Assembly: GCA_030264375.1 (NCBI GenBank)
Contig: JASCQW010000032.1
Span: forward strand, 26,311,958 to 26,374,602
Length of the DNA stretch: 62,645 nt
DNA from: Carcharhinus longimanus
Lineage: Eukaryota
Reading direction: 5' to 3'
The notes below the pieces were generated by a model that searched no databases, was not told where the DNA came from, and saw only the letters and a program-made list of their open reading frames with translations. A program made the translations under genes and the position numbers. Of this stretch, positions 71 through 62,645 are shown one piece after another; positions within the stretch are counted from its first letter, which is position 1; each line of letters opens with the position of its first letter.

Positions 71-410
71 TAGCACAGTAGTTAGCACTGCTGCTTCACA
101 GCTCCAGGGACCTGGGTTCGATTCCCTGCTCGGGTCACTGTCTGTGTAGTGTTTGCACATTCTCCTCAAGTCTGCGTGAGTTTCCTCCGGGTGCTTCGGT
201 TTTGTCCCACAGTCCAAAGATGTGCGGGTTAGGTTGATTGGCCATGCTAAAAAAAAATTGCCCTTAGTGTCCTTACAAGTGTAGATTAGAGGGATTAGCG
301 GGTAAATATTTGGGGGTAGGGCCTGGATGGGATTATGGTTGGTGCAGACTCAATGGGCCAAATGGCCTCTTTATGCACTGTAGGATTGCTATGTATGTTC
401 TATGTTTCTA
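71..410 (+). mobile_element. HE1/V-SINE type tRNA-derived SINE
   Basis: A-box-like head, B box GGTTCGATTCC at 115-125, V-domain (TTTGCACATTCTCC...GGGTGCTTCGGTTT...CCCACAGTCCAAAGATGTGC), CR1-like tail ending in TTCTATG repeats. Confidence 0.85.
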
Positions 411-14396: not shown

Positions 14397-17150
14397 GGGC
14401 ATGATCTTACAACCTTGTTCTGCCCAATGTTTGGCAAGGCGAGGTGGTAAGATTGCGCACTGGTATTTTAAAAACCAGCCTGGTTTTATGCCGGTTCCCA
14501 TGTTACCAGACAGTTTTTCTAGATGTGAACAGATTTGAGCTCACAGTGGGTGAGATGCAATTTGCATGCATTTGAATATACTCAGCAAGTTCGGCATGCA
14601 ATGGTCCACCCTCACTTACGTTAACCAGCTCATTGGTCAGATGTTATACCAGTGAGAATTACAATTGCTCTGTATAAGTGAGTTTCAGACAAGCAATGAC
14701 AAAGGTGAGTGAGGAGGTAAGTACCACTGAACAACAACCTCCTGAATATAAGGGGGAGGCCTCAGCTGTGGTCATAGTATAGGGTGGGGGGCTTGCATGG
14801 GTGCAATGGTGGGGGGGGTGCAGAATTGTGACTTTCAGGGGTCAATGTTGGCTTGGGGCTCATGTTGTGCACATTCCTCCTGCCCACCAAATGACCCCTC
14901 AATAGGTTGCTTATGATGTCAACCCCACTGGCATCGCCATGGTTACTTTGCCATCTGTCTGCTGGACAGGTTGTTTGGCTGACCACTGATATCCCATTCC
15001 AGGCAGCACTAACAGTAACAGGCAGCAGCTCAGTCAGCTGCTGCTCCAATCAAGGGAACTCGGCAAGTGTTATCACATCTCCTCATATGTATGGACTCTG
15101 CAATACTGCTCTTGATGGGAACCCATCTCTTACTAGTCATGAGGATGCTTCTCCACCATCTACAAGCCATTCCTGGTGGATACACCCATGTCTACGCTTC
15201 AGGGATTCCCAATTGGGACCCACATGGAGCAACCGTGTGCGCTCCGTGCCCCTCATGGCGAGAGTGCAGTGACAGTCGCCAACCACCATTGAGCTGATAG
15301 ATCTGGCTGTCATTCTTGTGCCTGTTGCGGCTGCTGCAGAGTAAGAGGAAAGAGACGTTGGCGCACTGCAAGGTCAGTCTGGGCCACAGGCTGCAGCAGG
15401 AGGACAGAAGGTTGCCGCTCGTGGGCAGGTGGAAGATGTCCAGCGGCCCGGGCATGTACCAGGGCACAGCAGGGATGGAGACATTGGCAGTTCAAGACAT
15501 GTATGCTCTTCAATGAGCTGACGAGCTAACGGATGACATGAGCTACCATAGGCTGCGGTTCAGTAAGGACATGGTGCACCACCTGTATCAGATCCTCGTG
15601 GACCTGGCATTTCGAGAGACAGAGGGACACCTCCTTCCGGTGGTAATGAAAGTTACGGTGGCTCTAAATATTTACGCAACTGGGTTGGTCCTTCCAGGCC
15701 AACAGCAGATCTCTGTGGGACCTCTCACTCCTCAGTCGACAATTGTGTCCACGGGGTGACTGATACCATGTTCGCCCAGGCAGGCTGTTACATCAATTTT
15801 GACAAGTGCCACATTCAGCAGGAAGTCATCAGCAAATGCCTACTGTGACTCGGCCATATCTTGGACCCTGCCACCCGTGGCGACCATTTCTTGACCCAGG
15901 TTTTCCACTGCGGAAGCCGTCCTTGCAGTGTTGACCTAAGTCCAAGCAATGCTGGCAATATCTCCTACATCAGCAATGTGTGGGACTCCACCCTACAGCC
16001 TGACAGTTGCTACAGTATTGCTGACATTCCCTCTTGAATTCCTCAGCTCTGCTGCTGCATCTCCAGCAACGTAGGGAGAACGAATCATAGTGGCCTGGCA
16101 CCTGTTTTGGGGCCAGCTGATTCCTTGCCCCCAGCAGTCCTTCACATGCCCGAGGCCTTGGACTTTCTCTCATCCACCTGATATGCATCAACAGCTGTAT
16201 TGTGTGCACCAGACCATGACTCAGAAGTCTCTCCATTAACTTGCCCCAGCGTGGTAATAGTATCTGGGCTGGTGGATTGTGTGCGGGGGTGTGGGGTGGA
16301 ATGGTGGTGGAAGGAGGTGGAGGGTGATGATGCCAGATGGGTGAAGTGCATTGGGGTTGCCTCCTGTAATAAAGGACACAAGAATCAGTGCAAGGAAGGG
16401 ACAAGTCTGGGCAGCATGCCACTTACTTGAGATATATCATAAATAAAGGTTTTGCAGATGCTCACTTCCTGTCACACTTCAACCTGGCTGTCGTTCATGA
16501 TTCTATCCTCCTCCTCTCCTGCCAGATCCATTGCTCTCTCCTCGAAGGAAGTGAGAAAGATCAGGAACATCACCTCCTGGGCCATCATCTGCTGTGGGGA
16601 CAGAAGGGGGATTGAAAACCTGATGTCAGGAAGGGCACAGAGTGCTGACGTAGCATCAGTTGGATGGAATTCATTGGGGTTGTGACAGGGCTTGCTAGAG
16701 GGGTTAAAGGAAGGGTGTTGGGTGCTGGAAGGTGGTGGGGTGGCAGTTGGTGGATCAACATGGACATGGCAGGTACGATGGACAGGACAGGCTGGAAGCT
16801 CACAAGGTCATTCATTTTGTTTTGGCACTGGCGGCCGCTCCTCCGTGCCAGTGCATGGGCACTGACATCCACCACAACCTCATTGCTGGCACAACCCCTG
16901 GATTGTTGCCCATCTGTGTGGAAGAAAATGTTTCTCTTGTCTTTAACTGCATCCAACAGATGACCCAGCTCTCCCGAAGTGAATCTTGGAGCTGTTCTTC
17001 TGGGTGCCCTTTTCCTGGCGTGATTTCCTTCTGTCCACCTTTAGCCCTTTTATGCAGTATTCCCTTGTTAACAGCGTACAACTGCAGCCACTTTGGGCGA
17101 GTCACGTACCCAGAGGGTCCATGGTGGTGGGAATTGCATCGAGGCCAGAA
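14397..17150. mobile_element. Decayed Harbinger element: transposase fragment (+, about 15450-15830) and Myb/SANT partner exons (-, about 16450-16960)
   Basis: GGGCATGATCTTAC left end; + HRLRFSKDMVHHLYQIL...HLLPVVMKVTVALNIYATG; - DAVKDKRNIFF...RRSGRQCQNKMNDLV and LTSFEERAMDLAGEEEDR. Confidence 0.78.
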
Positions 17151-18013
17151 GGCTATAAAGTGCTCGTTGAAAGAAGAGATATTTTTCCTGAGCAGACATT
17201 GAATCCATATAATTTTGTTTTACTGAAAAAATTTAAAGAAAACTTCAACTTGATCATTTAATTCATTGAAGATGACTTTGAATTTAAACCACATACAGAA
17301 TTGTAATACCAGAAATAGCACTGCATTCTTCATCATAATTGCAATGTCTTTGTGCATAATAGCATTAAATTAATTGAACAGAGGCTATCAAAGGCAATGT
17401 TTTGAAACTTTATTTTCACTGATAAAATTCAAACAGAGGAATTTAAAAACCAAAGCATTAAGATTTCTGATGATTTATCTCAACCATAGGAAATGTCAGG
17501 TGCTTTCTTATGAAAAAAAATTAATGACAAAAAGTGCTGAACAAGCAAATGGTGCGGGTTTTTTGTGAGCTGCATGTTGCGATCTTTCTGCACTTGGTGC
17601 AGTAAAAGAGCCTCAATGCAATTCCCACCACCATGGACCCTCTGGGTGCATGACTCGCCCAAAGTGGCTGCAGTTGTATGCTGTTAACAAGGGAATACTG
17701 CGTAAAAGGGATAAAGATGTACAGAAGGACATGGCAGGTACGATAGACAGGACAGGCTGGAAGTTCACGAGGTCATTTGTTTTGTTTTGGCACTCGCGGC
17801 CACTCCCCAGTACTGCTGCCAGACCTGCTGAGTATATCTATCATTTTCCATCTTTCTTTCAAAGTTCCAGCATTCACATAATCATTTTTACAGTGGCCTT
17901 GATTTTTTTCTAATTCATTAATAATGGCACAAATATTGTTTGCTGTGTATAATGTAAACTGAGTTTGATCCTGATTGCATACAGTTAAATTGCCGACTTA
18001 ATTTATTTCTTAG

Positions 18014-24600: not shown

Positions 24601-27600
24601 GGCCTGATTTTACTGTCAAGTTGCACCCATTTTCAGGCGCAAAAACTTGATAAAGTCAGGCGTGAGATGAGTAGTGCCATTNNNNNNNNNNNNNNNNNNN
24701 NNNNNNNNNNNNNNNNNNNNNNAAATTGACTTAATGGGCTTTACGCCCAACTTTACCAGCAATTCCACCTTTACCATCGCGTGAACCAATCTGGAATTGG
24801 TGCGAAACTGACATGCTTCATAAAATTACGATTCAGGTACTCCATCAGTGAGGGTTAGTGAGGAGGTAAGTATGTAGCATCCTATGGCTCTCAGCTGCTC
24901 ATAGATATCCTTTCGTTGCGGCCATTTTCTTTCTTGGGTCGGCGGTGGCTTTGCGCGCGTGTGCGTGGGGTGGGGTGTTGTTGCTCAGCAGGGTCTCCAA
25001 TGTCTGACTTGCAGCATGGACCCAGGTCTCAGCACTGACCTCGGGTCTTGTGGTGCTGCTGGGTCCGAGTGCACTCAGAACTCTTCCAGCTGAAGGATGT
25101 GCACAAAGCCCTAGCAAATTGCACTGCTGCAGCCCCTCAACTTTTCAAGGAACTCTGATTCTGGGGAGCATGTGGCTGGGGGAATTGGGGGGGAGGGCTG
25201 TAACTTCAGGGAGCATATGGCTGGGAGAATTGGGGGGGTGTGAACTGTGACTGTTGATGGGCTGGGGCAAGGAGTGTTCGCTAACCTCTACATGTGTCCC
25301 TCTCCATCTCCAAACTCCCCCCACTCCTTCAGAGTGAAGAGGTGACTTTTGCGATACAACCGATCGATCTTGCTGTTCTTCTGGTTGCTGCTAGACCTGA
25401 GGAGGAGGAGCTGAAAAGTGAATTGTAGGCTCTAGCCTTACCGCTTGCAGGAGTCAAGGGAGACGACCACCGGAGGCAGGAGATGGCCGCCATTCACTCT
25501 AGGGAGGGAGGTGGGGCTATGCAGGAGAAGGAGGGAGCACCCACTCTTTGTGTCTGTCAAATTGCTCAGAACTTTTATGCAACTAGCTTCTTCCAAATCC
25601 CTAGCGGAGATGTATGTGGCATTTCCCAATCAAATGTGCACACCAGTGTCAAGCACGTCACGGAAGCCCTGTATGCCTGGACAGGGCAGTACATCAAATA
25701 TAACCTGAACCAGGCCCAGCAGGAAGCCTGGGCTGCAGGATTCACAGCCATTATGGGGATACCTAATGTACAGGGGGCCTTTGACTGTGCCCATGTTGCC
25801 CTCAAGGTCCCCCCACAGAATCCATGAAGATTAATCAACAGAAAGGGGTTCCACTCCCTGAATGTTCAACTAGTGTGTGACCATAATATGAACATTATGC
25901 ATGTTTGCACAAAACACCTAACAGAGTGCATGACAGCTTCATTGCCAGGAGCTCTGACATCTTGGAGGCATTTGAGGAAGACCCCATGCTGCGGGGGTGG
26001 CTCGTGGGTGATGTAGTGGGTTATCCATTTTGGACATGGCTGATGATGCCTGTGTGGAGTTCTGTGACTGAGGTGGATACCTGCTATAATGAGGCCCATG
26101 TAGTCACCTGCGCGATAGTGGAGAGGTGCACTGGGGTCCTCAAAATGCAATTCCAGTGCCTGGAACGCTCCAATACAGCCCTATGATCTCTTCCTGCATT
26201 GTGGCCATGGGCTGTGCCTTGCACAATCTGGCTCTGCAGAAGGGTGATCTATTGAAGGAGGAGGAGGAGGAGGAGGAGGAGGAGGAGGATGTGGAAGCTG
26301 ACCGGCCGGGCGTCGCTGGGGAGGATGACTAGCAGTAGGAGGAGGAGGAAGAAGAGGAGGAGCACACCTTGGAACACCACCCAGACACTGGAGGGCTGGC
26401 AGCTCAAATGAGGCATGTGAGGGTGGCTAGCGAGGCCCTGATCACCAGATGGTTCAGTCCCCCCAACCCCGCAAAAAATTCCTTCTATCTCCTGCAACAT
26501 TGTCACACCAGAGTGGTGGGCCTGGGTATGCTGAGTTTTTTGACAGGCAGGAGGATGATGGCGACTCGCTAAGCACCATTACGATGATGCCCTGGTACAA
26601 GCAAGTCTAACTCCTACCTTTGCATGCGTGCTGGCAGCTGGGCTCACGTTTGTGTGGTGGATAAGTGATCTGAAACCCCCATTTCGCGCCCTGGGACAGA
26701 TGGGGGGAGGGGCGGCTGATGGGAGGGAACCGCTCGTGGGTTCTGGGGAACCAATGGCTTCCTTTCCTCAGTGACTGAGCACTGAGGGGCCTCCCCAGCT
26801 GACATCAACATGAAGCATCCTTCTGGCAATCATCAACCGCTGTGTCTTTGGCTGCAGCCTATGGGAATGTGGCCCAGTCGCATAGGGTCATGGCTGAGGG
26901 GCTGCAGAGCTTGTAGAAATCCCAGCGGGACAGCGCTGACTCACATCAGGCTACAGCAGCAATCCTTGAGACCGTGGCCCAGTCGCAGAGGGCACTTGCT
27001 GCGGCCATTGACATGTGATCCCCGACTCAGATGGCCATCATAGAGAGCTCGACCACCATGGGTAAAACACATGTGATCGTCCAGGACTAGCAGGGCCAGG
27101 AGACACCAGAGCTTCTGGAGCTCACTGCAGAAGCATTGCCGTCCCATGGAGTGACCCAGGGGCCCACAGGAACCCTAAGGGAGGAGGAAGGACTCGAGTC
27201 CATGCTGGGGCCTTCCAGCCAGGAGACTGTGGCTGTGGCTACACCTTCTGATTCCCCTCTTCCTGACAACAGGGCATCTCAGAGGCAGCAGGATGAAGAG
27301 GATGTCATGGAAACATCCCAGACACCTGGAAGCCGGCCAGGGCCCTCAAAAGTCCAGGACGTTCAGGGGATGCACACCACACGCATCACAGGCAACAGGG
27401 CGAGGTAGACAGCTGGCCCCCTCTACCTCCAATGTACATTCTGGGGAGTCACTGAGACAGTGTGGTAGACCACGTAAAGATAGGAAATTAACGTTGCATT
27501 GAGATGGCACGGGTGAAGGGCTGCACTAGTTGGAAAGATTTTTACGCACCTTAATGTTTTCTGTTTTCAAGTATTTATGTTAGAATGTATTATTTAAACA

Positions 27601-29950
27601 CCTTAATTGTAATTATTAAATTTTTTTCACCACCCACCTGTGACAAATTTGCCTCAGATTTGTCTCAAGTAGGAATCCTCTTCCATTGATGATTGCCAGA
27701 AGGATGCTTCATGTTGATGTCAGCTGGGGAGGCCCCTCAGTGCTCAGTCACTGAGAAAAGGAAGCCATNNNNNNNNNNNNNNNNNNNNNNNNNNNNNNNN
27801 NNNNNNNNNNNNNNNNNNNNNNNNNNNNNNNNNNNNNNNNNNNNNNNNNNNNNNNNNNNNNNNNNNNNCCCCATCTGCCCCAGGACACGAAATGGGGGTT
27901 TCAGATCACTTATCCACTACACAAACGTGAGCCCAGGTGCCAGCATGCATGCAGAGCTCAGGTAGGAGTTAGACTTGTTTGTACCAGGGCATCATCATCC
28001 TCCTGCCTGTCAATGCTGTGTCTCAGCATTGTCCTGCTGTGTCTCCTGCAAGCTCTCCAGCCTCAGCCATGGGCCGCAGAATCGTGAGAAGCCTGTTCAA
28101 TCCCTCAGCTTTGATCCGCTGTGACTCAGCTTTGGCTTGCTGTGACTCAGCCACAGCCCTCTGGGACTCTGCTGTGGCCTGCTGTGACTCGGCCTTTGCT
28201 TGGAGCCTGCCACTCATGGTGAGGATCCCCTGCCTAGGTTTTCCACTGCAGACACCACCCTTGCAGTGTTGGCCTGGGAAACATGCAAAACAGGCAATAG
28301 CTGGTCCACCTGAAAGCTTTGGGACTCCTCCCAACAGCCTCGCAATTGGTCGAGTGTAGCCATCAGCCCCTCCTGAATTCCCTGCTGCTGCAGCTCCAGC
28401 AGCTGAGGGAGAAGTGAGCTCAGAGGCCCAGCATGTATCCTGGGGCCAGCTGAGTCCACGCTTCCAGCAGGCCCCCTGGGTGTTCCCTCCTCAGCTCGAT
28501 GTACATTATCAGACATGTCATGCTCACTAGAGTGTGACCCAGAAGGCTCACCACTAACTGGACCCTCATCGACGTGTCAGTATCTGGGATGGTGAGTTAT
28601 GAGGTGGAAGCTGATGCCAAAATGGTGCCACCCTCAGAGGACCCTTCAGCCATATTCTCCGAGGACTCCTCCGAGCTGTCCTGACCAGGATGCACGGGAG
28701 CTGCAGATGGGGCCTGTAGTCCAGAAGGCCCTGAGGTGTCTGGATCTGTCCCTGTAACACAGGACACAATGTTAAGTGCAAGGGAGGAAGAGGAACCCAG
28801 GATGCAAAATACGCAATTCACATTTCTCCACTGAACATAGAACAAAGGGCAAAAAAGATTACATCGCAGGGACAGGCTCTTTGGCCGTCCAAGCTTGTAG
28901 CAACCAGGCTGCTCATCTGACTTGTAACCCCCTCCCCTTCTGTGGACCATGTGCCTCTATTCCCATCCCATTCACATTGCCGTAAAGACGCCCCTTAAAG
29001 GTCACTATTGTATCTGCGTCCGTGACTTCCCCTGGCAGCAAGTTCCAGACACCCACCACCCTCTATGTGCAAATAAACATGCCTTCTTTAAACTTGCCCC
29101 TCGCACCCAAAACTCATGTGCCCGAGAAGTTTCCTCAAAGTGAGTGGAGGAATGACAGGTGCTCAAGTCTTGATGGCAGCCCAACCATGCTGTCGCTGAC
29201 AGCCCGCATCTCCCCTTCCCTTCAGAGCTCCAGTGCCTGCTCCACAAAGGGGGTAAGGATCTGGAGGTCTGGTTCACCACCCCCTGTCTTTGCCCTCTCA
29301 CAGGTGTCATGGTTGGTCTTCTGTTGTGGAGACAGAAGGAGCCATGAAAGAAATGATGGCGTGATTACTGCAGAGTATCAGGTGGTGGCCCTTAGAGGGC
29401 AAGTGCAGTGGCTCTTGGGGAGGGTGGAGGGGGTATAGGGAGGAGGTGCTTGGGGATCAGGAGCTGGAAGTGTGCAGGGTGCTGGGGATGGGAGGACCTG
29501 GAGGAGATTTTGGGGGGGGAAGATGCAAGATGGGGTTCAGCACTCAACCTTCCTGCCCAGATGAGGTCACTGACCTTTTTCCAGCACCGCTTCCCATTTG
29601 AGGGGTCCAGTGCCCTGGAAGTGATCGAGGCAGTGACTGCCTCTCAGGTTGCATTGCCATCAGAGCTCCTAGGTCGGCAACACAGGGGGTGATGGCTGAG
29701 GGGCTGCAGAGCTTGCAGGAGACCCAGCGGGACAGCGCTGAGACACAGCGGGCTACGGCAGCATCCCTTGAGAATGTGGCCCAGTCGCAGAGGGCCATGG
29801 CTGAGGGGTTGCAGAGCATGGCCTAGTCTCAGATGGCAACTGACAGGTGGTCCCGACATTGATCTCCTTGCCTGAATCCTGTCAGACCTTCCAAACCTGC
29901 ACCACACCAATGTGAAATTCTGCCAGTCTGAAACATGCAAAAGGCGACCC
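24601..29950. mobile_element. Rearranged Harbinger element: transposase pseudogene (+, about 25340-26350) and multi-exon Myb/SANT partner (-, about 28020-29660)
   Basis: + NFYATSFFQIPSGDVCGISQS...IPNVQGAFDCAHVAL, NRKGFHSLNVQLVCDH, GWLVGDVVGYPFWTWLMMP..YNEAHVVTCAIVERCTGVLKMQFQCL; - KRCWKKVSDL, ERAKTGGGEPDLQILT. Confidence 0.85.
26256..26289 (+). repeat. (GAG)n microsatellite in the acidic transposase tail
   Basis: aaggaggaggaggag... run. Confidence 0.8.
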
Positions 29951-49599: not shown

Positions 49600-50154
49600 T
49601 TGAGATATGGTTTTAACTGAGTCCAGTGTCACCACCGCGGCTTGTGTTTCTCATCAGTGAGGGCACATGTTTGTCCTGCAATAATTACGTTATGAGGGTG
49701 TCCCCAATTGAGCCTAGCCCTTTCCTGTCTATCATGAGTTTCACCATTACCTTATTCCTTAGGAATGTTCTCCTCTGCGGGTTTCGTCAGTCTCTGTGTT
49801 GCTGTAGGGTAACCATCTATCTTTTAAAAGAATGTAAATGATTAATAAAATCTCTTGTTCACTGAAACACTGCGCTTCGCCTGATTTCAAGTTCTCCCTC
49901 ACCCGATATCGCATCCCCTGGGAGATGCATTGCTCTTCCTGTCATCAGTTCAAAAGGGGTTAACCCTGTTCCTCAAGAAGGAATAGCTCTTTGTCATAAC
50001 AATATTGCAGGCAAAGCCCGCACCCACATTGGCTAGACTGTATTTAACATCCTGTTCATGTGTTCTATCATTCCTGAACTCTGAGGGTGGTATGGTATGT
50101 GAAATATTTGCTTTATTCCCAACATTTTACAGGTTTCTCTTAAAAATTTCCCTG
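49600..50154 (-). pseudogene. pol: Integrase core/C-terminal pseudogene of ERV A
   Basis: GKFLRETCKMLGIKQIFHIPYHPQSSGMIEHMNRML...WVRALPAILL*QRAIPS*GTGLTPFELMTGRAMHLP. Confidence 0.85.
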
Positions 50155-50399: not shown

Positions 50400-52870
50400 A
50401 GGAAAAGGTTGCTAGAAGTGATGAAGTGGTGGGTAGATGAAATACACAAGAATGGTGTTAGGAGAGATGAGGGGAGTCAATGGTGGAGTGAATGGGCTAG
50501 GAAGGCATGAAGGAGAAAAGCGGAGTAAACGGGACAAGGGTCTGGGGGCAGAGTGTTTCATAGGTTGAATCAATGGGGGAGATTCAAGGGTGACTTGGGG
50601 GATCAGTGGTGATGAGGGCAGTTGATTGAATGACAAGAGGAGGGTTAAAGATAATGTAGACAGTCTGAAAGGTTGCACTCATCACCTTAGCGCAAAGGCT
50701 GCTCACCAACAGACAAAGAAGCCCCTGATGTCCATCAACTAGGAGGAAGGGAGGTCATCTTGAGTGGTTGGAGCTGAATATCAGCAAAACTGAACAATGT
50801 ATTTCTTGATAATTATGGAGAATCTGTATGAGGACTTTGTTCTTTTAAAACCTTCACTGTATCATGAAGCCCACACAGCAGCAGGGCTGGCCCTGAGGCT
50901 TCTCATAACAATGAGATCCCAGCGAGGTGTAGGGATTCATCTGTATGCCTCTCTCCCTTCACACTGAGCCATTTGACATCGGCTCCTGTCATAGGATGAA
51001 GGGAGAGAGGCATACGGATGAATGGCAAGTAACCTGCTAATGAAACCTTTATCCTTCTGGGGGAATGATCATTCCTGATAGGGGCTCAGGTGGTTAATCT
51101 TTCCATTATGACAAAGCAAAAATCTCAATTTGTCTTGGGAGCATTAGAGGCAAACAGAACAATGTGAGAGAAAAGCTTCTTGCATATGACTTTCATTACT
51201 CATGTCAAAAAATGATGGCTCTATGCACAGGCATACAAAATGGATACCCATCCTTGCCTCCAGGATGTTCTTCATCTGGGAAATATGGAATGTACACAAA
51301 CATTAAAGCAAGAATGAATCCAAGAAACTTCCAAACTGTGCAAGTTAATGTTTAATTGCAAGTATCCAAACTGTATATAAGATTGTCACAAGTGTGAATT
51401 CAGAACAACTTAATCTTTCTAACTCTATTTCTATGTCTAGGTGCAGCCCTGATATCACCAGCAGAAGAAAACCTGCTGACTCCTATGCTCTGTTTTCCGT
51501 GATGACTTTGGTGGGCTTCCTCTGGAAGTCCAAGGCTTGAAGGGCCCCAGCTGCTTTGGCTGTCCTGCTCAGACAGGCACACCCTTTTCAGCCTGAGCAG
51601 CTGAAACTGTTTAGATCACAGGCAGGGTGGAATGGGAATACCTGGATGCCCTTGGAGGGTTCTGTCTGGAGGCTCCCAGGGTGTCTGGCTAATGCTCCTT
51701 TTTCCTCTGGGTGCTTTAAGGACTCTCTCTGACTCCTTGAAGAGAAGGAATGACTGGATGGAGATTGAGGTGGCCCATTGCCCTCTCACCTACTACTGGA
51801 ATGCATCCATGATTATAGCAATGATATGCAGGCCTGAGCGCATATTTGGCAGAAATTGCTGGGCCTGGGTTTCTATGGCATTTGCCATTCCTCCCAAGGG
51901 GACTTCCATGCATTCGCATGCTGGACCATGACATTAGCGAGCATGTGCAAGGAATTCCCCCATCTCTTCTGCCACTCTTTTGTGGGCCCCAGACACCTCT
52001 GAATGATGTTCCTGTGGTGCTCTCTGAACCTTCAACAGATTTTCTCTGGCTGCTTCCAGAAGCTTGTCATCAAACTTGAACTTAGCAGATGCCTAGTCTT
52101 CAGTAGTCCTTTGAATGCCAGAGACCTTGGCTGTCATTGCCTCCTCTTGCTGTGGACATGTGTTTTTGAAGTGGCCTCTCTANNNNNNNNNNNNNNNNNN
52201 NNNNNNNNNNNNNNNNNNNNNNNNNNNNNNNNNNNNNNNNNNNNNNNNNNNNNNNNNNNNNNNNNNNNNNNNNNNNNNNNNNGCGTGTCCTTCTAATACA
52301 GTGACCATGTGGCTTCTGGCTGTGTTCTCAGTCAGTTCCCCTTCAGCATCTTGTTGATTGTCCTCACTGATGGAATTTAATCTCTGTTTTAACCTGTGGG
52401 ATCAGAATCCTAAATTTATTGTCCAAGTCAGCTTAATCAAGGATATTGATGGTTGCTACCCTGCCCCATACACGGCGGCCATGACATTGACTAATGGTCT
52501 CTTGGATTGTTCCTGTCTTTCGTCCATTCATATCTTCTGCCCCAACAGTCTGTGAGTTAGGTGGAGGTACAATCTCTTAGGCTGGGGAGAGCACCACTCT
52601 GGAATTGTGACCCAGCTATATCCACCACCAGAGATACCAATTCATAGTGGGTGTTGTCATACAGAGTTTTCCCTGTGCGTTTTAGTATCAATCCGTTCTG
52701 TGGTCCGGGGCTGGCTTCAGGACAAATCAAGTGGGATGGTTTTGGGGTTGGCTTTGGCCCATTTCTTATTTCATACAAGACAAAGGTCTTCTTTGTGTGT
52801 GCCAGGGCATCACTGTCCGAGCACTAATCCTTTTTCTGGGCTATTAGCCAGACATCCAATTTTGGGGCCC
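50400..52870 (-). mobile_element. Probable heavily decayed Harbinger-derived sequence
   Basis: Composition and fragmentary minus-strand translations resemble the Myb-partner C-terminal regions elsewhere in the window; no clean motif. Confidence 0.25.
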
Positions 52871-52879
52871 ATTATTTGA

Positions 52880-55800
52880 AAATCCCTATCAATCCCCTGC
52901 TATGGTGACACTCATAACATTCAACTGAACTGCCACTTGTTTTTTTATATCAGCCGCTGGTTGTTACACTCAAACATTATACTCTTATCGGGATGCACCC
53001 ATAACACACCATCCTCACATTCCCCCCCATCAGGTGGGGCAAACCTTAATAGCTGTGAAACCAAAAGTTCATCTTGCTTGGAATGTCCTGTGTGCTTATC
53101 CCAATGATGAGTCTGATAAGGTAAATTCTAGGTTGCATCTTTTGTCGTTGTCTGTTGTCCTGAGGAGATCAATGTAATTTCTACTGTTATTGCATCTAAT
53201 TTTTGGTGCATATGCCTGTGTGTAAACTGTCCATACCTACACTCACCGCTCCCCCCCTCAGCCTTTTCTTTTTTTTAAACACTATCAACAGTGGTATGGT
53301 CAGGAGGACCCAGATATATCGATTGTCGCTTGCATTTTGTAGTTTATGTTTCTAATTTTGAACAACTGCTGAGCAAATTTTTGTTCAGTTTGATAAATGG
53401 ATGAGTCGTAGAGTGGTTCAGAAAAGAGCTTGTTTAAACTGTCCAGCAAAATCAAGGCGGCCTGTTTTATTCTAGCAGCAATCACCATTAGCCCTCGGGA
53501 TTCAAATAGCACTGGAGTCAGTCTGTAATAACCTGAAGGGATTGGCATCGGTGTATCTTATGGGACATGGGTCGAATAAGATTCCGGAAGGCAGAACGAA
53601 TTTAAAATTTAGCACAGTTGCCTTGATGATTTTAAAATTTGGCTCAGTCGCCTTGGCGATTTGTCTGAACTGAAGAATGGCGACCAAAGAACATGGCATC
53701 GGACTGTGTAGATAACCCGGTTAATCATACTATCAGTATACAGATGGCATGGGAATGAGTTGGTTATATTTAACTGGATATTTTACATATTTCAGTGGAC
53801 CTTCAGGTTGAAGGATTCTGAGTGAGTTCTTCCATCTTTCTTGTACCTGCATTGTAGGCTGAATTGCATCATTTGGAGCTTCTTAGATTCCTTCATTCAG
53901 CATTTCCATTAACATTGCCCAACAGAGACTCATCCTCTGAATAATTTGTCTCATGGGGCTCCATCATTACCTCCTGGCCTCCATACCCATGTCTGTTCAT
54001 TGGTCTGCACTGTTGGGTCTGAGTTCAAGGGTCCTTTATCCTCGGCTTCCATGCTAATCAATCTGTGTCTGGTCTCTTCCAGGTGGGGCACACAGCATTG
54101 GATATCCCCATCAAAATAACCCGGTGCTGTTTTGTCGGGGCCTCACTGTTGGGTCTGGGGCTAGTAAGGCTTATGTTTATAGCGAAATCCATAATTCTGC
54201 GAGGGCCAATATCTAGTGAGTCGTGCCAGTTCTCTAGGATGTGCAAGTCTCCTGTTAAGTTGGGTTTGAACCTGAAAGTGAATGAGAAGGTGTCCGGGGA
54301 AACTCGTTTCCTGCATGAGGCCATTCCGGTCACCTAGCATCATTCTCCACTATCTCTAATGTGAGATGGTGGAAGTGATTATTCTGAGTCCCATAAGTTT
54401 TCAGTTGATTGACGTGGAACCAACCAGTTTTCTTGTTGGCGATCAGGACCTTATACACCAAGGGGCTCATTTCATCGGTAATGGTGGGCGGGCCTACGTA
54501 TCTTGGGGATAAGAAAGAACTAGGATCGTAGAGGGAAATCCTTACCTGCTGGCCAACTGTATATTCTACTGGCAGTGCCCTTTTATCAAACTATGCCTTG
54601 CTCTGTTTCTTTTTAACTCCTAATCAGACAGTCGCAGTTAACTGGGCTGCTTTAATGTTTCCAGTTATCTGTAGACGGCTTTCTCGTGGGTGAGCGCTGT
54701 GATAGCAGGCTCAGTTAAATCAAACCCCAATAAGTATTCAGCTCCCTCATAGGTCAGCCAGTCATTAATGTGTGGGGGAGTGAACCCAGTAGAACTGGAA
54801 ACGGTGTTGTGTACCATCATAGGGCAAAGGGAAATACTGTATCTCATATTGTGTTGTTTTCTGCATCGTCTTCCTAATGATCCCTTTTTGCATTCGGTTC
54901 ATGCGCTCTACAATTCCATTGGATTGTGGACGGTAGGCAATGTGGAATTTCTGCTTGATGCCAAACATAGCCATAACATTCTGCATCACTCGCCCAGTGA
55001 AATGTCCCTTGGTCGGAGTCTATGCTGGCACATGCCTTGGCTAATACATCTTGCCTTACAGTTGCCAGGTAGGCAGGTTCTTTGGTGGCTTCTAAACTAA
55101 TTCCACTTGCATGCCGACAGACCATATTTTAATAAGGGGCCTGACAGTCGGGACTTTCCTTCCACAAAGACCAACCCTCTGGCTTCCCAAAATGGTAGGA
55201 ACTGAGTCAGGCTGTTGCACAGGTATATGCTATCAGAGTGTACGTTGGCAGGGATTGGAAATAAATCTGGGTGCCTCACTAGATACGTGATTGCTGCCAG
55301 TTCAGCAGGTTGAGCACTCAAATGGCTGGGTAGTTTGGGAGTGAGTTCTATTAGGTGGCTGTTGACTTTCCACAGCAATGCCACATCCTGTGATTCTGGT
55401 CCCATCCTCTGTGGTGGATGAACCATCTACATAAACTCTCATGGCTGAGTCTTTCTGTTGGGTGGCTGTCTGTTTTGTCCCTGGCCATGCATGTTTAGGG
55501 ATAAATTGACATGTGGGGTCCTTTGTGGCTATAACCTGATGCTCATGTGGATCTCTCCCATAATTTAAACTATCTGCCAGGAATATCATGGGCACTTTAG
55601 TTCGCTTTACAGTGATGTCCCTACCCTGCAGTAGTATATCCAACGGACAGCATGGACCTGGCTTACTGAACCATCTTTAAGGTGGCAGTGTAGCAGAAGC
55701 TGGGCTGGGGTGTGTTCGGTAAGAATTGTTTTTGGGTTTAGTCTGGTGATATAGGCGAAATGCTGCATGGCCCAAAAAAACACAAGCAGGTGTTGTTCAC

Positions 55801-57460
55801 ACCTGGAGAAGCCCTGTTCAACTGGGTCTAATACTCATGAGGCATAGGCTACTGGGCCTGGTCTACCATGTTGTCCTGTAATAATACTGCCAAAAGTGTA
55901 TGGTCGGTGGCTGCAAATTCTAAGGCATATAATAGATCTGGGTCAGGATGTGAGGGTGTGCTTTAAATCGATTACTGCAGCTGTGTTCTATGCAGTCCAC
56001 TTCCAGGTTGCGTTTTTCTTTAGCAATTCAGACAGTGAGGCTTTTTTGGTGGCGAAGCCATTTATAGGGTTCTGACAGTACCCTAATAGACTTCGGACAG
56101 ATCAGAGGGCACTCACTTCTCGGGGCAATGGGACTATGGAGTCTATCCTTTCCTGTTTGATCTCCCTCTTCCTGTGGGTATGTAGGTATATGACCTTGGG
56201 TTGCAAAATTTGAGCCTTTATCAGGTTGACTTTGCAACCTAATGAATGGAGCAGTGCGAGCAAATTCATCTAGCAATGTTACATACTCCTGTTCGGTGTT
56301 AGTCTATCAGAATAATCGTCCACATATTGGACCAGGCACTCGGGTCTGGAGAACTTTTCTAGTCCGGCAGTTGGTTATCTATGGAAGATGAATGCGGAAT
56401 TATGGAGATTCTGTGGAAGGTAAGTCCAAGTATGTTGCTATCCCTGAAGGTAAAGGCAAACTTGTACTGGCAGGACTGATTTTAACAGGACGGACTAGAA
56501 CCATTACAGATATCCAGTACTGTGAAAAGCTTTGCCAGGGCTTCCTGTCTCATGGTGACGGGGCTTGTAACTACTGTGGGAGCCGTGAGTGGGGTAATCT
56601 TATTTAATTTCAGATGATCATTAACATCCATGCAGGCCATAATGGTGCATTGTTTGTGGATGCCAACCATCTCAACACCCTCTGCTGTAATCAGTGACTA
56701 TCAGTTATTTTGGCCACCTCACCCCTCTGCCTGTCTGGGGAAACCATATTGTCTCTGCAGTTTAGGATCCTGCTCTTCAGTTAACACCTCTCCAGGTACC
56801 TGGCCACAATCATGTTTCTGCCATGCAAATACGCCAGTTTTTTTTTTAAAAGCAGCTCCCTGATGGCCGGATCACTGCTAACCATTAAGGGATCAAACCA
56901 GAATTCCCCTATTATGCCAACCCTATTCACTTATGTCCTGACTGGGATGATTAAAGATGCTCTACTAATTGTAGTCATCTGCCAAATGCATTGATTAGCT
57001 GGATCAAATGAAAGATTACATTTATTCATGTAATCGGACTCAAGAGTGTGTTCCACGTTTGGGGGAAGGTCAACTAACATCACTGGATGGTCATACACCA
57101 TATTGCATAGATGGACCTGTACAGGGGCTGGCATGTGTTCTGTGAATTCATTGAGTGTGATTGTACCCATACTTGGTCAAGAGATGTCTGTCTTAAATTT
57201 CGATAAATTCAGGGTAGTTTGGGAGCCTCCGGTATTCCAAAGGAATTCTATGAGGTGGCCTCTTACCTCGCCATTAACTAGTGGTCTCCCTATGCTATCC
57301 CACCTGGAGCTACAAACCCAAGTTGGGGAGACCGGACACCGTCACTCTAGGGTTCCATAGGCAGGAGCAGTTGGAAATGGTGGTGGGCGAGCACTCACGG
57401 TATGCATGGGGTGACCGGGACCTTTATTGTTGTTGCACTTGATCACCCCTGACATGTATT
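52880..57460 (-). mobile_element. Retrovirus-like element B, 3' part (gag end, pro-pol, unknown 3' region, PPT, start of 3' LTR)
   Basis: Minus: protease FLW(N)TGGS about 57225; RT LEKFSRPECLVQYVDD 56315-56326; tether PVAYAS..EQGFSRCEQHLL..WAMQHF; RNase H VYVDGSS..AELAA..SDS; integrase IDSDQG..HIAYRPQSNGIVERMNR; LTR start TGTTATG at 53006. Confidence 0.88.
54350..57341 (-). pseudogene. pol: pro-pol pseudogene of element B
   Basis: Order PR-RT-tether-RH-IN with many stops, frameshifts and deletions (integrase zinc finger not seen). Confidence 0.88.
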
Positions 57461-57547
57461 ACTGAACTCTGATAAGGACAGCCTAGGAGTGGGAGTGAGA
57501 TGGGAGAATAGAAGACTCCAGGTGGTGAGTATAAACTTATCTGTGTT

Positions 57548-59820
57548 ATGGCAGGATCACAAGGAAGTGGGGGCCCCTGGGATCCCTGATAGAGGAATAT
57601 ATATATGACTGAGAGGGATAGATTCATTAAACAGATGGGAAAAGAAGGTTGGAACTCATCCGTTCGACCAACAATGAAAATGTTTGGAAAAGGGAAAGAA
57701 AGATAGAACTAAGAAAATTGGAGTTCTCTTGGTTCATCAATTAGCAGGATTAATTGAACAAGTCTCAGGCAAGAAATGGGCTGATGACAAAGCAAAAATC
57801 AAATTGTTGGAATCATGCAATAGATATTAGAATATTTTTGAGAAGCATTTGAATGTGGGGAGTGACGCTTTAGAATACACCATGAATGTTTGGGAATGCT
57901 TAAACCTGCCCGAACTGAGAAAGCCTTTTCACAAGTGTTTAAAGACGGGCTGTCATCAGTTCACCAAAAAATCCTTAAAATGGGAATTCTTAGCACACAG
58001 AACTATGATGAATTAGTAGAATGGGCATATGGAATTCAAGATGGACCAGATGAGAAACTCTAAGGAGAAATCTTAGGTTTTGTATTTCAGTGTGTTTGTG
58101 GGATCTGGTTGCTTGTTGAATGTAGGAATGTAGGTGGTTGTTGTTGTATTAGATTGAGAGCAGGAGTGTAATGCTTTACACTTTGGTTTAACTTCAAAGG
58201 GACTGAGGAAGTGTTAAAACTGTTGAAATTTTAAGTATAAGATTTCTTGAATTTACTTCTGTTTTGAGTGTAATTACATTTTGGAAGAAAGAAGAATGAA
58301 GGCAACTGTCTTAATCTGTCTTCTTTGTTTCTTTCAATGTTTTATTTTCATCCCAGTTTAGAATGTTGGATTTGAATAAAGGATAATATGGAATGAATGT
58401 TGGAAGCTTCCATGTGTATCTGTATGTGTGTTTAATGAAGTGGTTAGGATGTTTTTGTTGTTGTTGTTTGCTTCAGTGTTTTAATGTTCTTTCTCTAATT
58501 GTGATTTTACAACAGTAGATTTGATATAGGTTTAAGTAAAAATTGGAAAGTAAACTGAACTTTCAAAATCAAAATATATAAATTGAAGTTTGAAATAACC
58601 AGTTTGAGTTTTGAATAATCCTGGGTTCAAATTTTGTTAGGAACGGATTTAAACCTTGGAAGGAACAATGTGCTCTTTCCTTTTGTCTTGAAGAAGTTGT
58701 TTGAGACGAAGTTAATTCATTTGGCTCCTTGCCGAAAGTATTTTTGCGTTTTAAGTAGATGGTTTGTGGATGACAAGCAAGATTGTTTATCACAACCCAG
58801 TGATAATTGAGACTTGAAGAGTTTGGTTCATTCTGATTTTCTCATTGTTAACTTTTGAATTAAAGTAATTGGTTATGCTTAAGTGTTACAGTTTCTGACA
58901 TTTAAATTGATAGAATAAATTGAGTGCACAAAATAACCAACTTATAAATGGGAAGTTGCCTGAATCTATAAGAGGTAAATAAGTTTAATTTTGACAAATA
59001 AAAGGTAATGGAAATAAAATCTGTATGGGTTTTATGTTTCAAAGAGGGATGCATTGCAATATATTCTCAGTTTTTGATTTAACCACCTGAATGTGAGATA
59101 ATTTTACAGAGTAATATGTTTGTTTTGTGACTTTCCTATACTGAGTAAACGTTATCTGTGGTAATCCTCATGTTCACATGTAAAGTTTGTCGAATCGCTG
59201 TTTGTAAATACTAATAAGTTGGGAGTTAATTTGTCTGAAAAGCTAAGGGCTCTGGAGAGCGTCGATGACTTTACAACAGATGATGGGACTTTTCCTAGTA
59301 CTTAGTTATTTGGGGTTACTGGAGTTAAAATGCTTAAAGGGGAACAAATAAACCATTTGTGCAAGTTACGTTACTCATAAATAAATTGGTAAAGCGGACA
59401 GAATGATGGAGGAGTTTCCTCTATAATTTGTCAAACTGATAGGAAAACTTTTGAATTACTTTTAGTTTGTACTTTGGTTAGATTGTGTTAATTGGGGTCA
59501 TAGACGAACATAGCATGTGTCTGTTAGAAGGTGATAGATATTGAACTGTGACTGTGGAAGATTAAAATGGCATCTGTGACAAAAGAGTGTTTATTGTGCA
59601 AATTTGGATCATTTTTAAATGACGAATACTTTGGACAGTTAAACCTACCTCTTCAGCACTTTTGGGTGCATGACCCTCCAAAATCCAAATTTGAACGTCA
59701 TTTCCTTTGTATTTGTATCAATGATTTATTATTGTCCTGTGCATAATTCTGAACCTAAAATGGTGTTTAGAATATGTGATTATTTGTACTGTTGTCTGTA
59801 GCTTCTGGAAATATCAATGT
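57548..59820 (+). mobile_element. Probable non-autonomous LTR-element interior with degenerate gag fragments, AT-rich
   Basis: + fragments KKIGVLLVHQLAGLIEQV and EKAFSQVFKDGLSSVHQKILKMGILSTQNYDELVEWAYGIQ resemble capsid pieces. Confidence 0.4.
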
Positions 59821-59839
59821 GTTGTAGGGATGTATTTTT

Positions 59840-60397
59840 ACTGTGCATGCCAATGTCTAGGCCTTGCTTGACCGTTGAGTGACTGGGGAATTCCTGACAG
59901 ATACTGGTCCTGAGTCTGTGATCCATCATGCTTCGCGTTTAGGATCAAGGAAGGTGTGTGACCCTTGTGCCTCCGGCACCTACAGACATGGCCGTTGAGG
60001 ACATACCCAGAGATCGGTGTGGCAGCACCTGACTGGACTTTATCAATCAGGGGGATCAAGTCCTGATTGACTGATTGGCAATGACCAAAAGGGGCGTGAA
60101 ACTCAACCAGGAATGAGTTACAACAATGGTGACCATCACCAGCGATGACCAGCAGTTGGAGAGCAACCACACCCGAGAAGGAAGGAAGGAAAGAAAACTA
60201 AAGCCAGAGTGCCAGGCCGGACCAAAGAACTATACTATGCAGAGGACGACCAAGACCGATGCACAGGTAAAGGCCAGTATTTGCTTGGGTACTTGCCAGT
60301 CACGCAAGGTTAAGTCAAGATCTTGTATTGGACTTGAACTTTGGTATTTTCCTGTAAGATAACTTATTGTTGGTTGAGTGGGTGCTTATTGATTGTG
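59840..60397 (+). repeat. LTR of the element B family in + orientation (runs into N gap)
   Basis: 60359-60397 matches the reverse complement of 62607-62645 at 37/39 nt; left boundary uncertain. Confidence 0.6.
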
Positions 60398-60497
60398 NNN
60401 NNNNNNNNNNNNNNNNNNNNNNNNNNNNNNNNNNNNNNNNNNNNNNNNNNNNNNNNNNNNNNNNNNNNNNNNNNNNNNNNNNNNNNNNNNNNNNNNN

Positions 60498-60690
60498 TGT
60501 CTGGGGAAACTGTCTTGTCTCTGTGGTTTCAGATCCAGCCCTTCAATTAACACCTCCCCAGGTATCTGGCCACAGTCTTGCTTATGTTGCGCAAACACCC
60601 CATTGTTTGTCTGAAGCACCTCCCTGATGGCTGGATCACTACTAATCATTAACCAGAGTTCCCCTATTGTGCTAACCCTATTAGCATATA
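60498..60690 (-). pseudogene. Second copy of element B RT N-terminal segment
   Basis: SSDPAIREVLQTNNGVFAQHKQDCGQIPGEVLIEGLDLKPQRQDSFPR parallels 56730-56930. Confidence 0.8.
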
Positions 60691-60799
60691 GACCATAGAA
60701 CCCTATAGAACCCATCGAGCCGACCACAATCCCACCCTGGCCCTACCCCCATATCCTTACATATTTTACTTTTGAGCCATCGGCTCGTGTGACCATTGG

Positions 60800-60900
60800 C
60801 TGCCCCTTCGTCAGGTAAGTGTCACTTACCTGACGAAGGGGCAGTGCTCCAAAAGCTATTGGCTTTTGCAGCTAAATAAACCTGTTGTATTTTAACCTAG
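60800..60900. mobile_element. Penelope-type palindrome with a degenerate hammerhead core
   Basis: Perfect 22-bp arms 60800-60821/60823-60844; + CTGACGA-A-GGGGC agt GCTCC-AAAA-GCT. Confidence 0.7.
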
Positions 60901-62049
60901 AGACTTACTACATTTATTTAACCCATCTACGGGATCGCATTTATTAAGCCCTACCGCGGTCAATATCGCTTCCTTGATCTCCTTTAAGGTTCCTTCTCCA
61001 ACATTTTGAGGGGTTGGCAGGGCAGACCATACAGACTTACATAAGCACATGACTGTCAGTTTCACTTCTTCCCTTTCATCTAGCCCATACATTATCTTTT
61101 GCTGCCTAACATCCTCATAGAAACTGTGTGGGACAGCTGATAGCTCAAAGGTTGTGATTTTATTTGTGGTTTTAGTCAATTGTGTCATGTATGTGACAGC
61201 TGAGCCCTGAGACTCTCCTACCTGACGTTCAGTCGTCACTGGGTGCATCGGTACTGGAGGTGAATCTGGGTGCATGGTGGGTATGACTTCCCCTGGGAAA
61301 GATGGTGGTGGGCCCCTTGCGTAATGTACAGCTTAGCATTCTCTTTTAACTCTCCATAATCTGCATCCTCTACCTCCTCTTCCTCTATTATCCCGAAGGT
61401 ACACATAAATCTGTTGTGAACCGATAATAGAGATTTCAGCCGTGAAGTTTCTTGCTGGCATTTGGAGTGGTCAGCAATTGCCTGTCTCTGTTTCTTACTG
61501 GCTTGATGTAGTGCTTTTATTGCTGCCTGCAGATCAGTGTACTCAGCTTTCAATCGTGCTTCCGCCCGCTCAGCTTCACCTTTGGCCAGGACAGTGTCTT
61601 GGTAGCTTCTCATACTGGGTCTGAAAATTGCCCAGATGTAATAAATTTGCCTCTTTGATTCTTTTTAATTCATCTACTTCTCTGTCCTTTTTGGCTCTTA
61701 TTTGTTCTATTTTCTCTTGCTGCTGTTCCTTTAGTTTCTTAATCTCCTTCTCCTTTTCCTCCTGTGCCCGCTTCAATTCCTCCAGTTCCTTACAAACTGT
61801 GTTTAATTCCTTTTCTGTTCCTAGCAGCTGTCCCTAAGCAGCTCACCATGGCAGTCGCTTTCTCACATTACCTGATTGTTTTCGCTGAACTTTCCTCAGA
61901 TCATCCCAATACTTCTGTCCTTGGAATCCCAGTCCCATCTCAGTATTGACACAAAATTCTGCCCATGAGGGCCACCCTTTCTTAATATATTTTCTGATTT
62001 TTGTTTCCCATATGGGACACTTCTCTGTCTCTGTTCTGTTTCCTGCCAT
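60892..62049 (-). pseudogene. gag: gag pseudogene (N-terminal part, long coiled-coil) of element B
   Basis: Frameshifted ORFs 61843-62049, 61576-61776, 61236-61613 and 60892-61275 downstream of PBS; E/K/Q-rich heptads followed by a capsid-like segment. Confidence 0.72.
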
Positions 62050-62490
62050 TCTATGTTTTTGACGATAAGGGGGAGGAAGTTGATCGGACTGCGGGTACAG
62101 CTTTGGACTATGTTCCAGTCCTAATCCCTCCGATTCTAAGTAAACCTACAGAGTTTACCTTATCCTCCTTGTTAGTAACAATGCATGCACAAAAACAATT
62201 CCCGAAAGCAACAATTTGTCCAATAAGGAGTTTACACCTGTTGGCTCTGGCAAGTGAAGCTGGATAGAAACAAAGAAATATAGAAACTAGAAGCAGGAGA
62301 AGGCCATTACCTTCTCCTCAAGGATTTTAAATAATCCTTCAATATAGACCTTTCAGTCCCTCTGATTTACTTGAAATCCTGGCTGTCACATGGAGTATTT
62401 GCCATCTTAATTTGGGCTCAGGCTAAATCTCCAAGAGTATTAGGTTTTGTGGGATTCGATATTGGAACAACAAAGTTACTTCTTGTTGAT

Positions 62491-62508
62491 GTCTCATCTG
62501 GGGTGCCA
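62491..62508 (-). promoter_or_regulatory. Primer binding site, tRNA-Arg(CCT)-like
   Basis: Minus TGGCACCCCAGATGAGAC, 3 nt after the LTR end; from memory it differs at one position from the complement of the vertebrate tRNA-Arg(CCT) 3' end (GTCCCATCTGGGGTGCCA). Confidence 0.75.
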
Positions 62509-62511
62509 ATT

Positions 62512-62645
62512 TGTTATGCCTGCCATACAGTCTGTTTTAACCCTTATATGGTGGACAGAGAATTGCGAGTAGATTTCTTGTTAGTACAACAATATTTATT
62601 TAAACACACAATCAATAATCACCCACCCAACCAACAATAAGTTAT
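62512..62645 (-). repeat. 5' LTR (R/U5 end) of element B, truncated by window end
   Basis: Ends CATAACA (minus), the inverse of TGTTATG at 53006; AATAAA on minus at 62595-62600; adjacent PBS. Confidence 0.75.

Follow-up and report, generated by a model that had tools for sequence, protein, structure and literature searches.

A fossil endogenous retrovirus of Carcharhinus longimanus, probably related to snakehead retrovirus, with a predicted F-type Env

Layout of the locus

The window analysed here is a stretch of 62,645 nucleotides of the shark Carcharhinus longimanus (assembly GCA_030264375.1, contig JASCQW010000032.1, positions 26,311,958 to 26,374,602), from a genome of 2.68 Gb, which carries on the minus strand of the contig a dead, composite copy of an endogenous retrovirus (ERV), a jumbled member of a multi-copy family that is probably related to snakehead retrovirus (SnRV). 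An earlier note, made from the letters alone, had treated 52880-62645 as one clean element, which it is not. The copy is interrupted by an inverted element of the same long terminal repeat (LTR) family, contains a reverse transcriptase (RT) piece of another copy and has lost ~620 nt of integrase (IN) at 55027/55028, which together rule out one intact provirus. Read from the LTR towards env, and compared with other copies of the family (sister copies), the features are as follows.

62512..62645, minus strand: 3' end of the 5' LTR, the remainder lost in a gap beyond the window; 84-90% identical to sister-copy LTRs, ending CATAACA
62491..62508, minus: primer-binding site (PBS) for tRNA-Arg(CCT); 17/18 bases complementary to the 3' end of the genome's own tRNA-Arg(CCT), CCA added
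60908..62049, minus: N-terminal and middle parts of gag (coiled coil, capsid-like region), with frameshifts and stops; 79-83% to sister copies
60690..60907, no strand: short non-family stretch inside gag; no co-linear match in sister copies
60498..60689, minus: protease-RT piece of another family copy; 77% to 56732-56916, adjoining a gap
57435..60397, plus: inverted non-autonomous element of the same LTR family; two further loci match it at 84-86% over an unbroken 3.0 kb
57342..57424, minus: C-terminus of gag, ending in an in-frame TGA (57344-57342) that is conserved at aligned junctions
56930..57341, minus: protease, active-site motif mutated in this copy; Asp_protease_2 E 0.002 in a sister copy
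56040..56860, minus: RT, frameshifted, by tblastn; RVT_1 E 1e-19 in a sister copy
55640..56039, minus: connection or tether, a degenerate Gypsy-type RNase H; PVAYAS at 55855, WAMQHF at 55774
55037..55440, minus: second RNase H, frameshifted; YVDGSS at 55433, AELAA at 55306, HSDS at 55240; RNase_H E 0.001 in the window
53914..55027, minus: IN remnant with SH3-like C-terminus and long C-terminal extension; zinc finger and first catalytic part deleted
52283..53138, minus: env remnant (signal peptide, surface part, fusion peptide, first heptad repeat), truncated by the gap at 52183-52282

Most of what had been noticed in gag and pol is present. The long coiled-coil Gag starts at an ATG at 62049, with ~555 nt of gag missing where the non-family stretch now lies, and the pol motifs, though stops and frameshifts break them up, stand at the positions given earlier: FLWNTGGS of the protease at 57241, the YVDD of RT at 56326 and, after the RNase H, IN at 55027-54330. 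The claim of a dual RNase H is borne out by stop-free stretches of sister copies, in which Pfam finds RT_RNaseH_2 (E 8e-14) and then RNase_H (E 2e-17). This arrangement is common to all retroviruses and thus not diagnostic for lokiretroviruses. Sister-copy Gag also has one CCHC knuckle (Pfam zf-CCHC, E 3e-8). Across the gag-pol junction, gag and pol share one frame in sister copies, the TGA is present in 14/14 aligned junctions and its context is mostly UGA-CGG in the family; judged from the sequence, this stop is likely to be read through into pol.

The two termini proposed for the LTR, TGTTATG and CATAACA, fared differently. CATAACA (62518-62512) is the true right end, 14 family LTR ends terminating like it, while TGTTATG at 52919 had to be given up as the start of a 3' LTR. 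It sits inside the broken env, family LTRs (~790 nt) start TGTGGCC after a purine run and end like CACAACA in sister copies, and the internal sequence common to sister copies runs past 52919 up to the gap at 52282. The two motifs form an inverted pair by chance, TGTTATG occurring three times on the minus strand of 52300-62645. The Arg-type PBS, on the other hand, was rightly recognised, the match to a tRNA gene having been made for the window PBS only. It varies among family copies (C139, C72b and C72c, that is, L012, L028 and L053, against 62508 in the window), which may reflect switching among tRNA primers.

Assembly gaps lie at 52183-52282 and 60398-60497, and there is an N-run beyond the window end at the LTR side. 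At 77% identity, the segment at 60498-60689 is no closer to 56732-56916, which it repeats, than unrelated copies are to each other, and so derives from another family copy; the adjoining 60690-60907 resembles a short dispersed repeat that is also found at window 302-342. The junction at 57424/57435 is spanned (57252-57522) by contigs of the public runs X1 and X5, and the IN deletion (54955-55406) by a contig of X1 only – X1 may be the source sample, whereas X5, which differs by 9 letters, spans only the 57424/57435 junction. Both being bridged by run contigs, misassembly is therefore unlikely as their cause. The gap leaves room for either one insertion or two behind the gag and pol-env portions.

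Other observations concern the surroundings of these genes. In a sister copy, the C-terminal extension of IN (window 53914-54330, minus strand) measures ~200 residues; between pol and env there is a 30-nt tandem repeat whose copy number varies (window 53596-53662). Another IN fragment at window 49862-50152 (minus strand), which is 37-50% identical to the family and its relatives and adjoins a gap, belongs to another LTR element. Long inverted repeats at window 26618-27956 and 17023-17732 (83-123 nt, 92-99% complementary, flanking 0.5-1.2 kb) are probably DNA-transposon remnants.

The env gene and its predicted fold

The earlier note had seen no recognisable env, yet the family has an env gene and so does the window copy. 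One sister copy (L030:3-1559) has a natural stop-free stretch of 519 residues, which opens like a signal peptide and includes an RSKR site, a hydrophobic peptide and a heptad repeat. Over 353 columns it is 44% identical to window 53274-52282 (E 2e-61), where 13 stops interrupt the reading and the furin site has degenerated to QSKR (52509-52498). A second stop-free stretch, of 364 residues (L014:8147-9238), has a membrane anchor at its end, a hydrophobic C-terminal anchor being recorded for copy C112, and the L014 stretch used as query gave 126 genome matches with the best 112 of 765 candidates scored. In a 26-row alignment, the cleavage site R-x-K/R-R is found in 12 of the 20 rows that have letters there. 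It is thus hardly credible that the family is an env-less LTR retrotransposon or an env-less basal retrovirus: the window copy has neither an intact env nor a standard Pfam env match, as such an element would, but env remnants occur in it and in many other copies, the gene has been under constraint and the supposed 3' LTR start falls within it.

That constraint can be gauged from pairwise dN/dS ratios of stop-free stretches, which are 0.18-0.36 for env and 0.20-0.49 for RNase H-IN. Each range comes from 7 pairs, with one copy common to all, and the values are pulled down by the restriction to stop-free stretches and to blocks of at least 50% identity and by CpG decay. Because env was under purifying constraint similar to that on pol when the copies diverged, these ratios suggest that the family spread at least partly by reinfection. 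More diverged env subfamilies also exist (C98:23323359-23324336 and C105:35361233-35362060; L060-L063), which are 51-52% identical to the family Env and 63% in DNA, have RKKR/RKRR sites and in one case adjoin the same LTR family.

A search for homologues of Env among 1.84 billion representatives returned 40 relatives. The six that were looked up belong to Mustelus asterias, Pristiophorus japonicus (2), Chiloscyllium punctatum, Rhinoraja longicauda and the frog Pelodytes ibericus, so that relatives of this Env are found in four other cartilaginous fishes and one frog, the closest with a name being those of sharks. The transmembrane stretch as query found one unnamed protein, at 76%. In a Pristiophorus protein labelled 'Niban 1-like' (P0148), the first ~200 residues belong to the Env family, probably because two gene models were fused or part of env was exonised.

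The fold was modelled with AlphaFold from a 29-row alignment, giving a mean predicted local distance difference test score (pLDDT) of 58, with 195 unreliable N-terminal residues and values mostly of 72-89 over residues 201-250 and 351-500. In a Foldseek search of the PDB with this model, all 42 rows listed were paramyxo/pneumovirus F proteins, the best being that of human parainfluenza virus 3 (E 2.3e-7). Its top matches in BFVD were F-type glycoproteins of mononega-like viruses and baculoviruses and the Envs of walleye retroviruses, and the long VIA-align matches (204-257 residues) included Newcastle disease virus F (Z 8.8 over 257) and foamy virus Env (Z 7.6 over 204). The ESM Atlas placed Env with Baculo_F/Fusion_gly clusters at 0.94, while HHalign aligned the Env profile with the Env of an intact lokiretrovirus locus at 97.8% probability (E 8e-13, 14% identity). 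A predicted F-type class I fusogen is therefore a well supported reading of this Env.

Copies, age and a proposed life cycle

The family is old and broken, with at least 40 copies in the genome. With RT-IN as query, 66 matches were obtained, making up ~40 loci of 75-81% identity when the best 40 of 183 candidates were scored, and 21 other places were compared with their flanks, a few of which are partial copies or diverged subfamilies. LTR pairs differ by Kimura two-parameter distances of 0.147 (790 sites) and 0.117 (502 sites), which would correspond to ~120-150 million years at the rate of 0.5e-9 assumed in PMC10699275. By eye, neither of the copies that have two LTRs shows a target-site duplication, and both contain gaps, so these ages are unsafe and the family can be called 'old' only.

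The inverted element consists of an AT-rich, largely non-coding internal part, a 3' untranslated part (59759-59948) and an LTR (~59950-60397), and has 59 genome matches. One of its copies (L070; other locus L069) contains a 151-residue coiled-coil, Gag-like stop-free stretch. The LTR as query gave 1577 first-look candidates, and in four runs contigs covered the LTR at least ~10 times as deeply as pol.

A life cycle can be proposed for the ancestor of these copies, in which (i) genomic RNA would be driven by the LTR, (ii) minus-strand DNA would be primed by tRNA-Arg at the PBS observed in the window, (iii) Gag, as seen in sister copies, would have a long coiled coil and one CCHC knuckle, (iv) Gag-Pol would be made by reading through the conserved in-frame UGA, (v) RT with its degenerate tether and second RNase H would be followed by IN, all of which are observed, (vi) Env would be made from a spliced RNA and enter the secretory pathway by its signal peptide and (vii) Env would be cut by furin at RSKR and mediate F-like membrane fusion, as its motifs and predicted fold suggest. 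After insertion, the window copy acquired stops and frameshifts, lost parts of IN and gag and was interrupted by its inverted non-autonomous relative. What is left at this locus is a fossil, in which nothing points to function.

Reverse transcriptase phylogeny and comparison with known retroviruses

The position of the family was determined from RT trees, for which the input was single-frame fragments of natural copies with X at stops. FastTree was run on 135 rows, a quick LG+C20 analysis on 60 and LG+G4 on 38 and 45, rows for the last being picked from 125 protein RTs, 10 copy fragments and 20 virus RTs. These included three lokiretrovirus (Loki) loci of teleost type, located through the RT motif that the supplement on Loki gives, together with genomes of foamy, gamma, beta and delta type, which were taken from IMG/VR and assigned to these types by their length, motif and number of CCHC rather than by name. 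No SnRV record was found among the viral contigs scanned.

All trees agree that Loki is sister to the rest and that the family falls inside the retroviruses, with ultrafast bootstrap (UFBoot)/SH-aLRT values of 100/98-99. Its RT lies outside the gamma/epsilon, alpha/beta/delta and exogenous foamy clades. It also lies outside Gypsy (Metaviridae), having a dual and not a single RNase H; nesting in an ordinary Gypsy clade, which the earlier note had set as one of its refuting tests, is not seen. The view that this is retrovirus-like rather than Gypsy, from a deep aquatic lineage with dual RNase H, is upheld. Of the idea of a basal retroviral branch, the deep lineage stands, whereas the lack of env and a placement outside the retroviruses or with Loki do not. 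The nearest neighbours are Pols with a dual RNase H (92/86): those of frogs, X. tropicalis among them, and coelacanth, which are labelled 'NYNRIN-like' or 'Gypsy integrase-like', together with unnamed ones. A bullfrog Pol (P0004) considered as Loki-Rca proved not to be the same.

SnRV has an upstream env leader, and it reportedly has an arginine-tRNA PBS and a large Gag coiled coil, both of which are present in the family. Furthermore, SnRV and ZFERV are listed as readthrough retroviruses (PMC13517186), SnRV thereby sharing the gag-pol readthrough predicted here, at a stop in a context of UAG-GGC as against mostly UGA-CGG in the family. A bridge is offered by lineage I of the CmiERVs of the elephant shark, which clusters with SnRV (Han 2015, PMC4422223) in a group for which the name clade Huo is in use (Xu et al. 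2018, PMC6001957). Compared by eye on scaffold 2 DNA, CmiERV-I resembles the family both in Gag (coiled coil, DWGEL-type motif, one CCHC, in-frame stop before pol) and in Pol (HKHDCG ahead of RT, tether plus RNase H, RT and IN motifs in common). Our best reading, to which we assign a probability of roughly 0.78, is that the family is an SnRV-related class III (clade Huo) retrovirus with a predicted F-type, paramyxo/pneumovirus-like Env.

Several observations weigh against this reading. On the Env side, besides the low bias of the dN/dS ratios, the Foldseek matches have TM-scores of only ~0.3 and root-mean-square deviations of >15 A, short helical-bundle proteins equal or beat F in Z with VIA-align, Pfam Fusion_gly matched neither Env nor 16 relatives, and sequence and profile searches of the PDB with Env gave no useful match. 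On the Pol side, support for the inner placement is moderate (UFBoot 84-92, unstarred), the nearest solved RT and IN structures are foamy, and a clade of the wider group with foamy is not rejected (p-AU 0.108). As the trees were made without SnRV, CmiERV, CmiFLERV and XtrFLERV, the link to SnRV comes from the by-eye comparison with CmiERV DNA and from reported SnRV traits. Finally, by eye, the Env of CmiERV-I is of gamma type (immunosuppressive domain, CX6CC) and its PBS a different one, whereas the family has an F-type Env and Arg PBSs; an SnRV-related Pol with a gamma-type Env has been described, Env swaps being frequent (bioRxiv 2021.11.23.469661).

If these differences are the outcome of such a swap, the family would belong to a widespread undescribed class III lineage of aquatic hosts (sharks, rays, frogs, probably coelacanth) that kept an ancestral F-type Env common to Loki and foamy viruses, its close relative CmiERV-I having exchanged it for a gamma-type. 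We put this forward tentatively, at slightly less than even odds. If true, it would speak for F-type as the Env of the ancestor that Loki and all other retroviruses share, gamma- and beta-type Envs being later replacements, and the same lineage may be the source of the mammalian NYNRIN gene. An IN close to CGIN1/NYNRIN counts as a criterion for Loki. In an IN tree (L030:3318-4775), a mammalian NYNRIN falls near the family and apart from two Loki loci, with weak support (80/85, 95/63), and an origin of that gene in this retroviral group may be considered. Wang and Han left four scenarios for the origin of Env open, since they saw no similarity of Loki Env to other retroviral Envs (PMC7947760). 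With an F-like Env, homologous to that of Loki, joined to a Pol nested among the retroviruses, the question becomes testable by an Env tree.

A lokiretrovirus of cartilaginous fishes would share with the family the tether plus RNase H, YVDD and an F-like Env in which a signal peptide, an RxKR site and a fusion peptide are all present (PMC7947760), an Env that is homologous here; the top Pol matches are named 'NYNRIN-like', and there is a gap to fill, Loki having been reported absent from 6/6 chondrichthyan genomes (PMC7947760). Such an identity is nonetheless very improbable. The family RT lacks the signature seen in 22 YVDD passages of the Loki paper (PMC7947760), the trees separate it from the three teleost-type Loki loci at 97-100 support and a clade of family plus Loki is rejected (p-AU 0.00068). 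Moreover, the two Envs are only 14% identical, that of the family having a longer surface part, its Gag has a CCHC knuckle and the region before RT is much shorter than in Loki Pol.

Foamy viruses and foamy-like ERVs (FLERVs) have YVDD, the nearest solved RT and IN and an F-related Env fold in common with the family (PMC5512871, PMC5210030). The family could accordingly be the shark-frog 'foamy-like' lineage known so far from pol only (CmiFLERV/XtrFLERV), now revealing its gag and env, since that lineage unites elephant-shark and Xenopus tropicalis elements (PMC5512871), X. tropicalis Pols are among the RT neighbours, foamy Env is among the fold matches and, as said, grouping at the wider level is compatible with the trees. 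We regard this as unlikely, if less so than a Loki identity. A clade of the family itself with exogenous foamy viruses is rejected, if more weakly than one with Loki (p-AU 0.023), and the RT lies outside them. The Gag has a zf-CCHC, against 0 CCHC in 8 foamy-type genomes and its reported absence from fish foamy-like ERVs (PMC5210030). In addition, gag continues into pol in the same frame beyond a stop, the PBS is of Arg type instead of the Lys, Asn or Thr described for FLERVs (PMC5512871, PMC5210030) and no GGGTG junction before the LTR was seen by eye in family copies.

The Odin retrotransposon, which is env-less with a dual RNase H and whose RT is sister to Loki plus retroviruses, differs in that the family has an env and an RT inside the retroviruses, in a tree without an Odin sequence. 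In the literature searched, with subscription papers outside scope, we found no description of an F-type Env on an SnRV-like shark ERV. Compared with these known systems, what is new about the family of C. longimanus – which we read as an SnRV-related class III retrovirus – is most likely the combination of an F-type Env with an SnRV-like Pol, a variant within a known retroviral kind.

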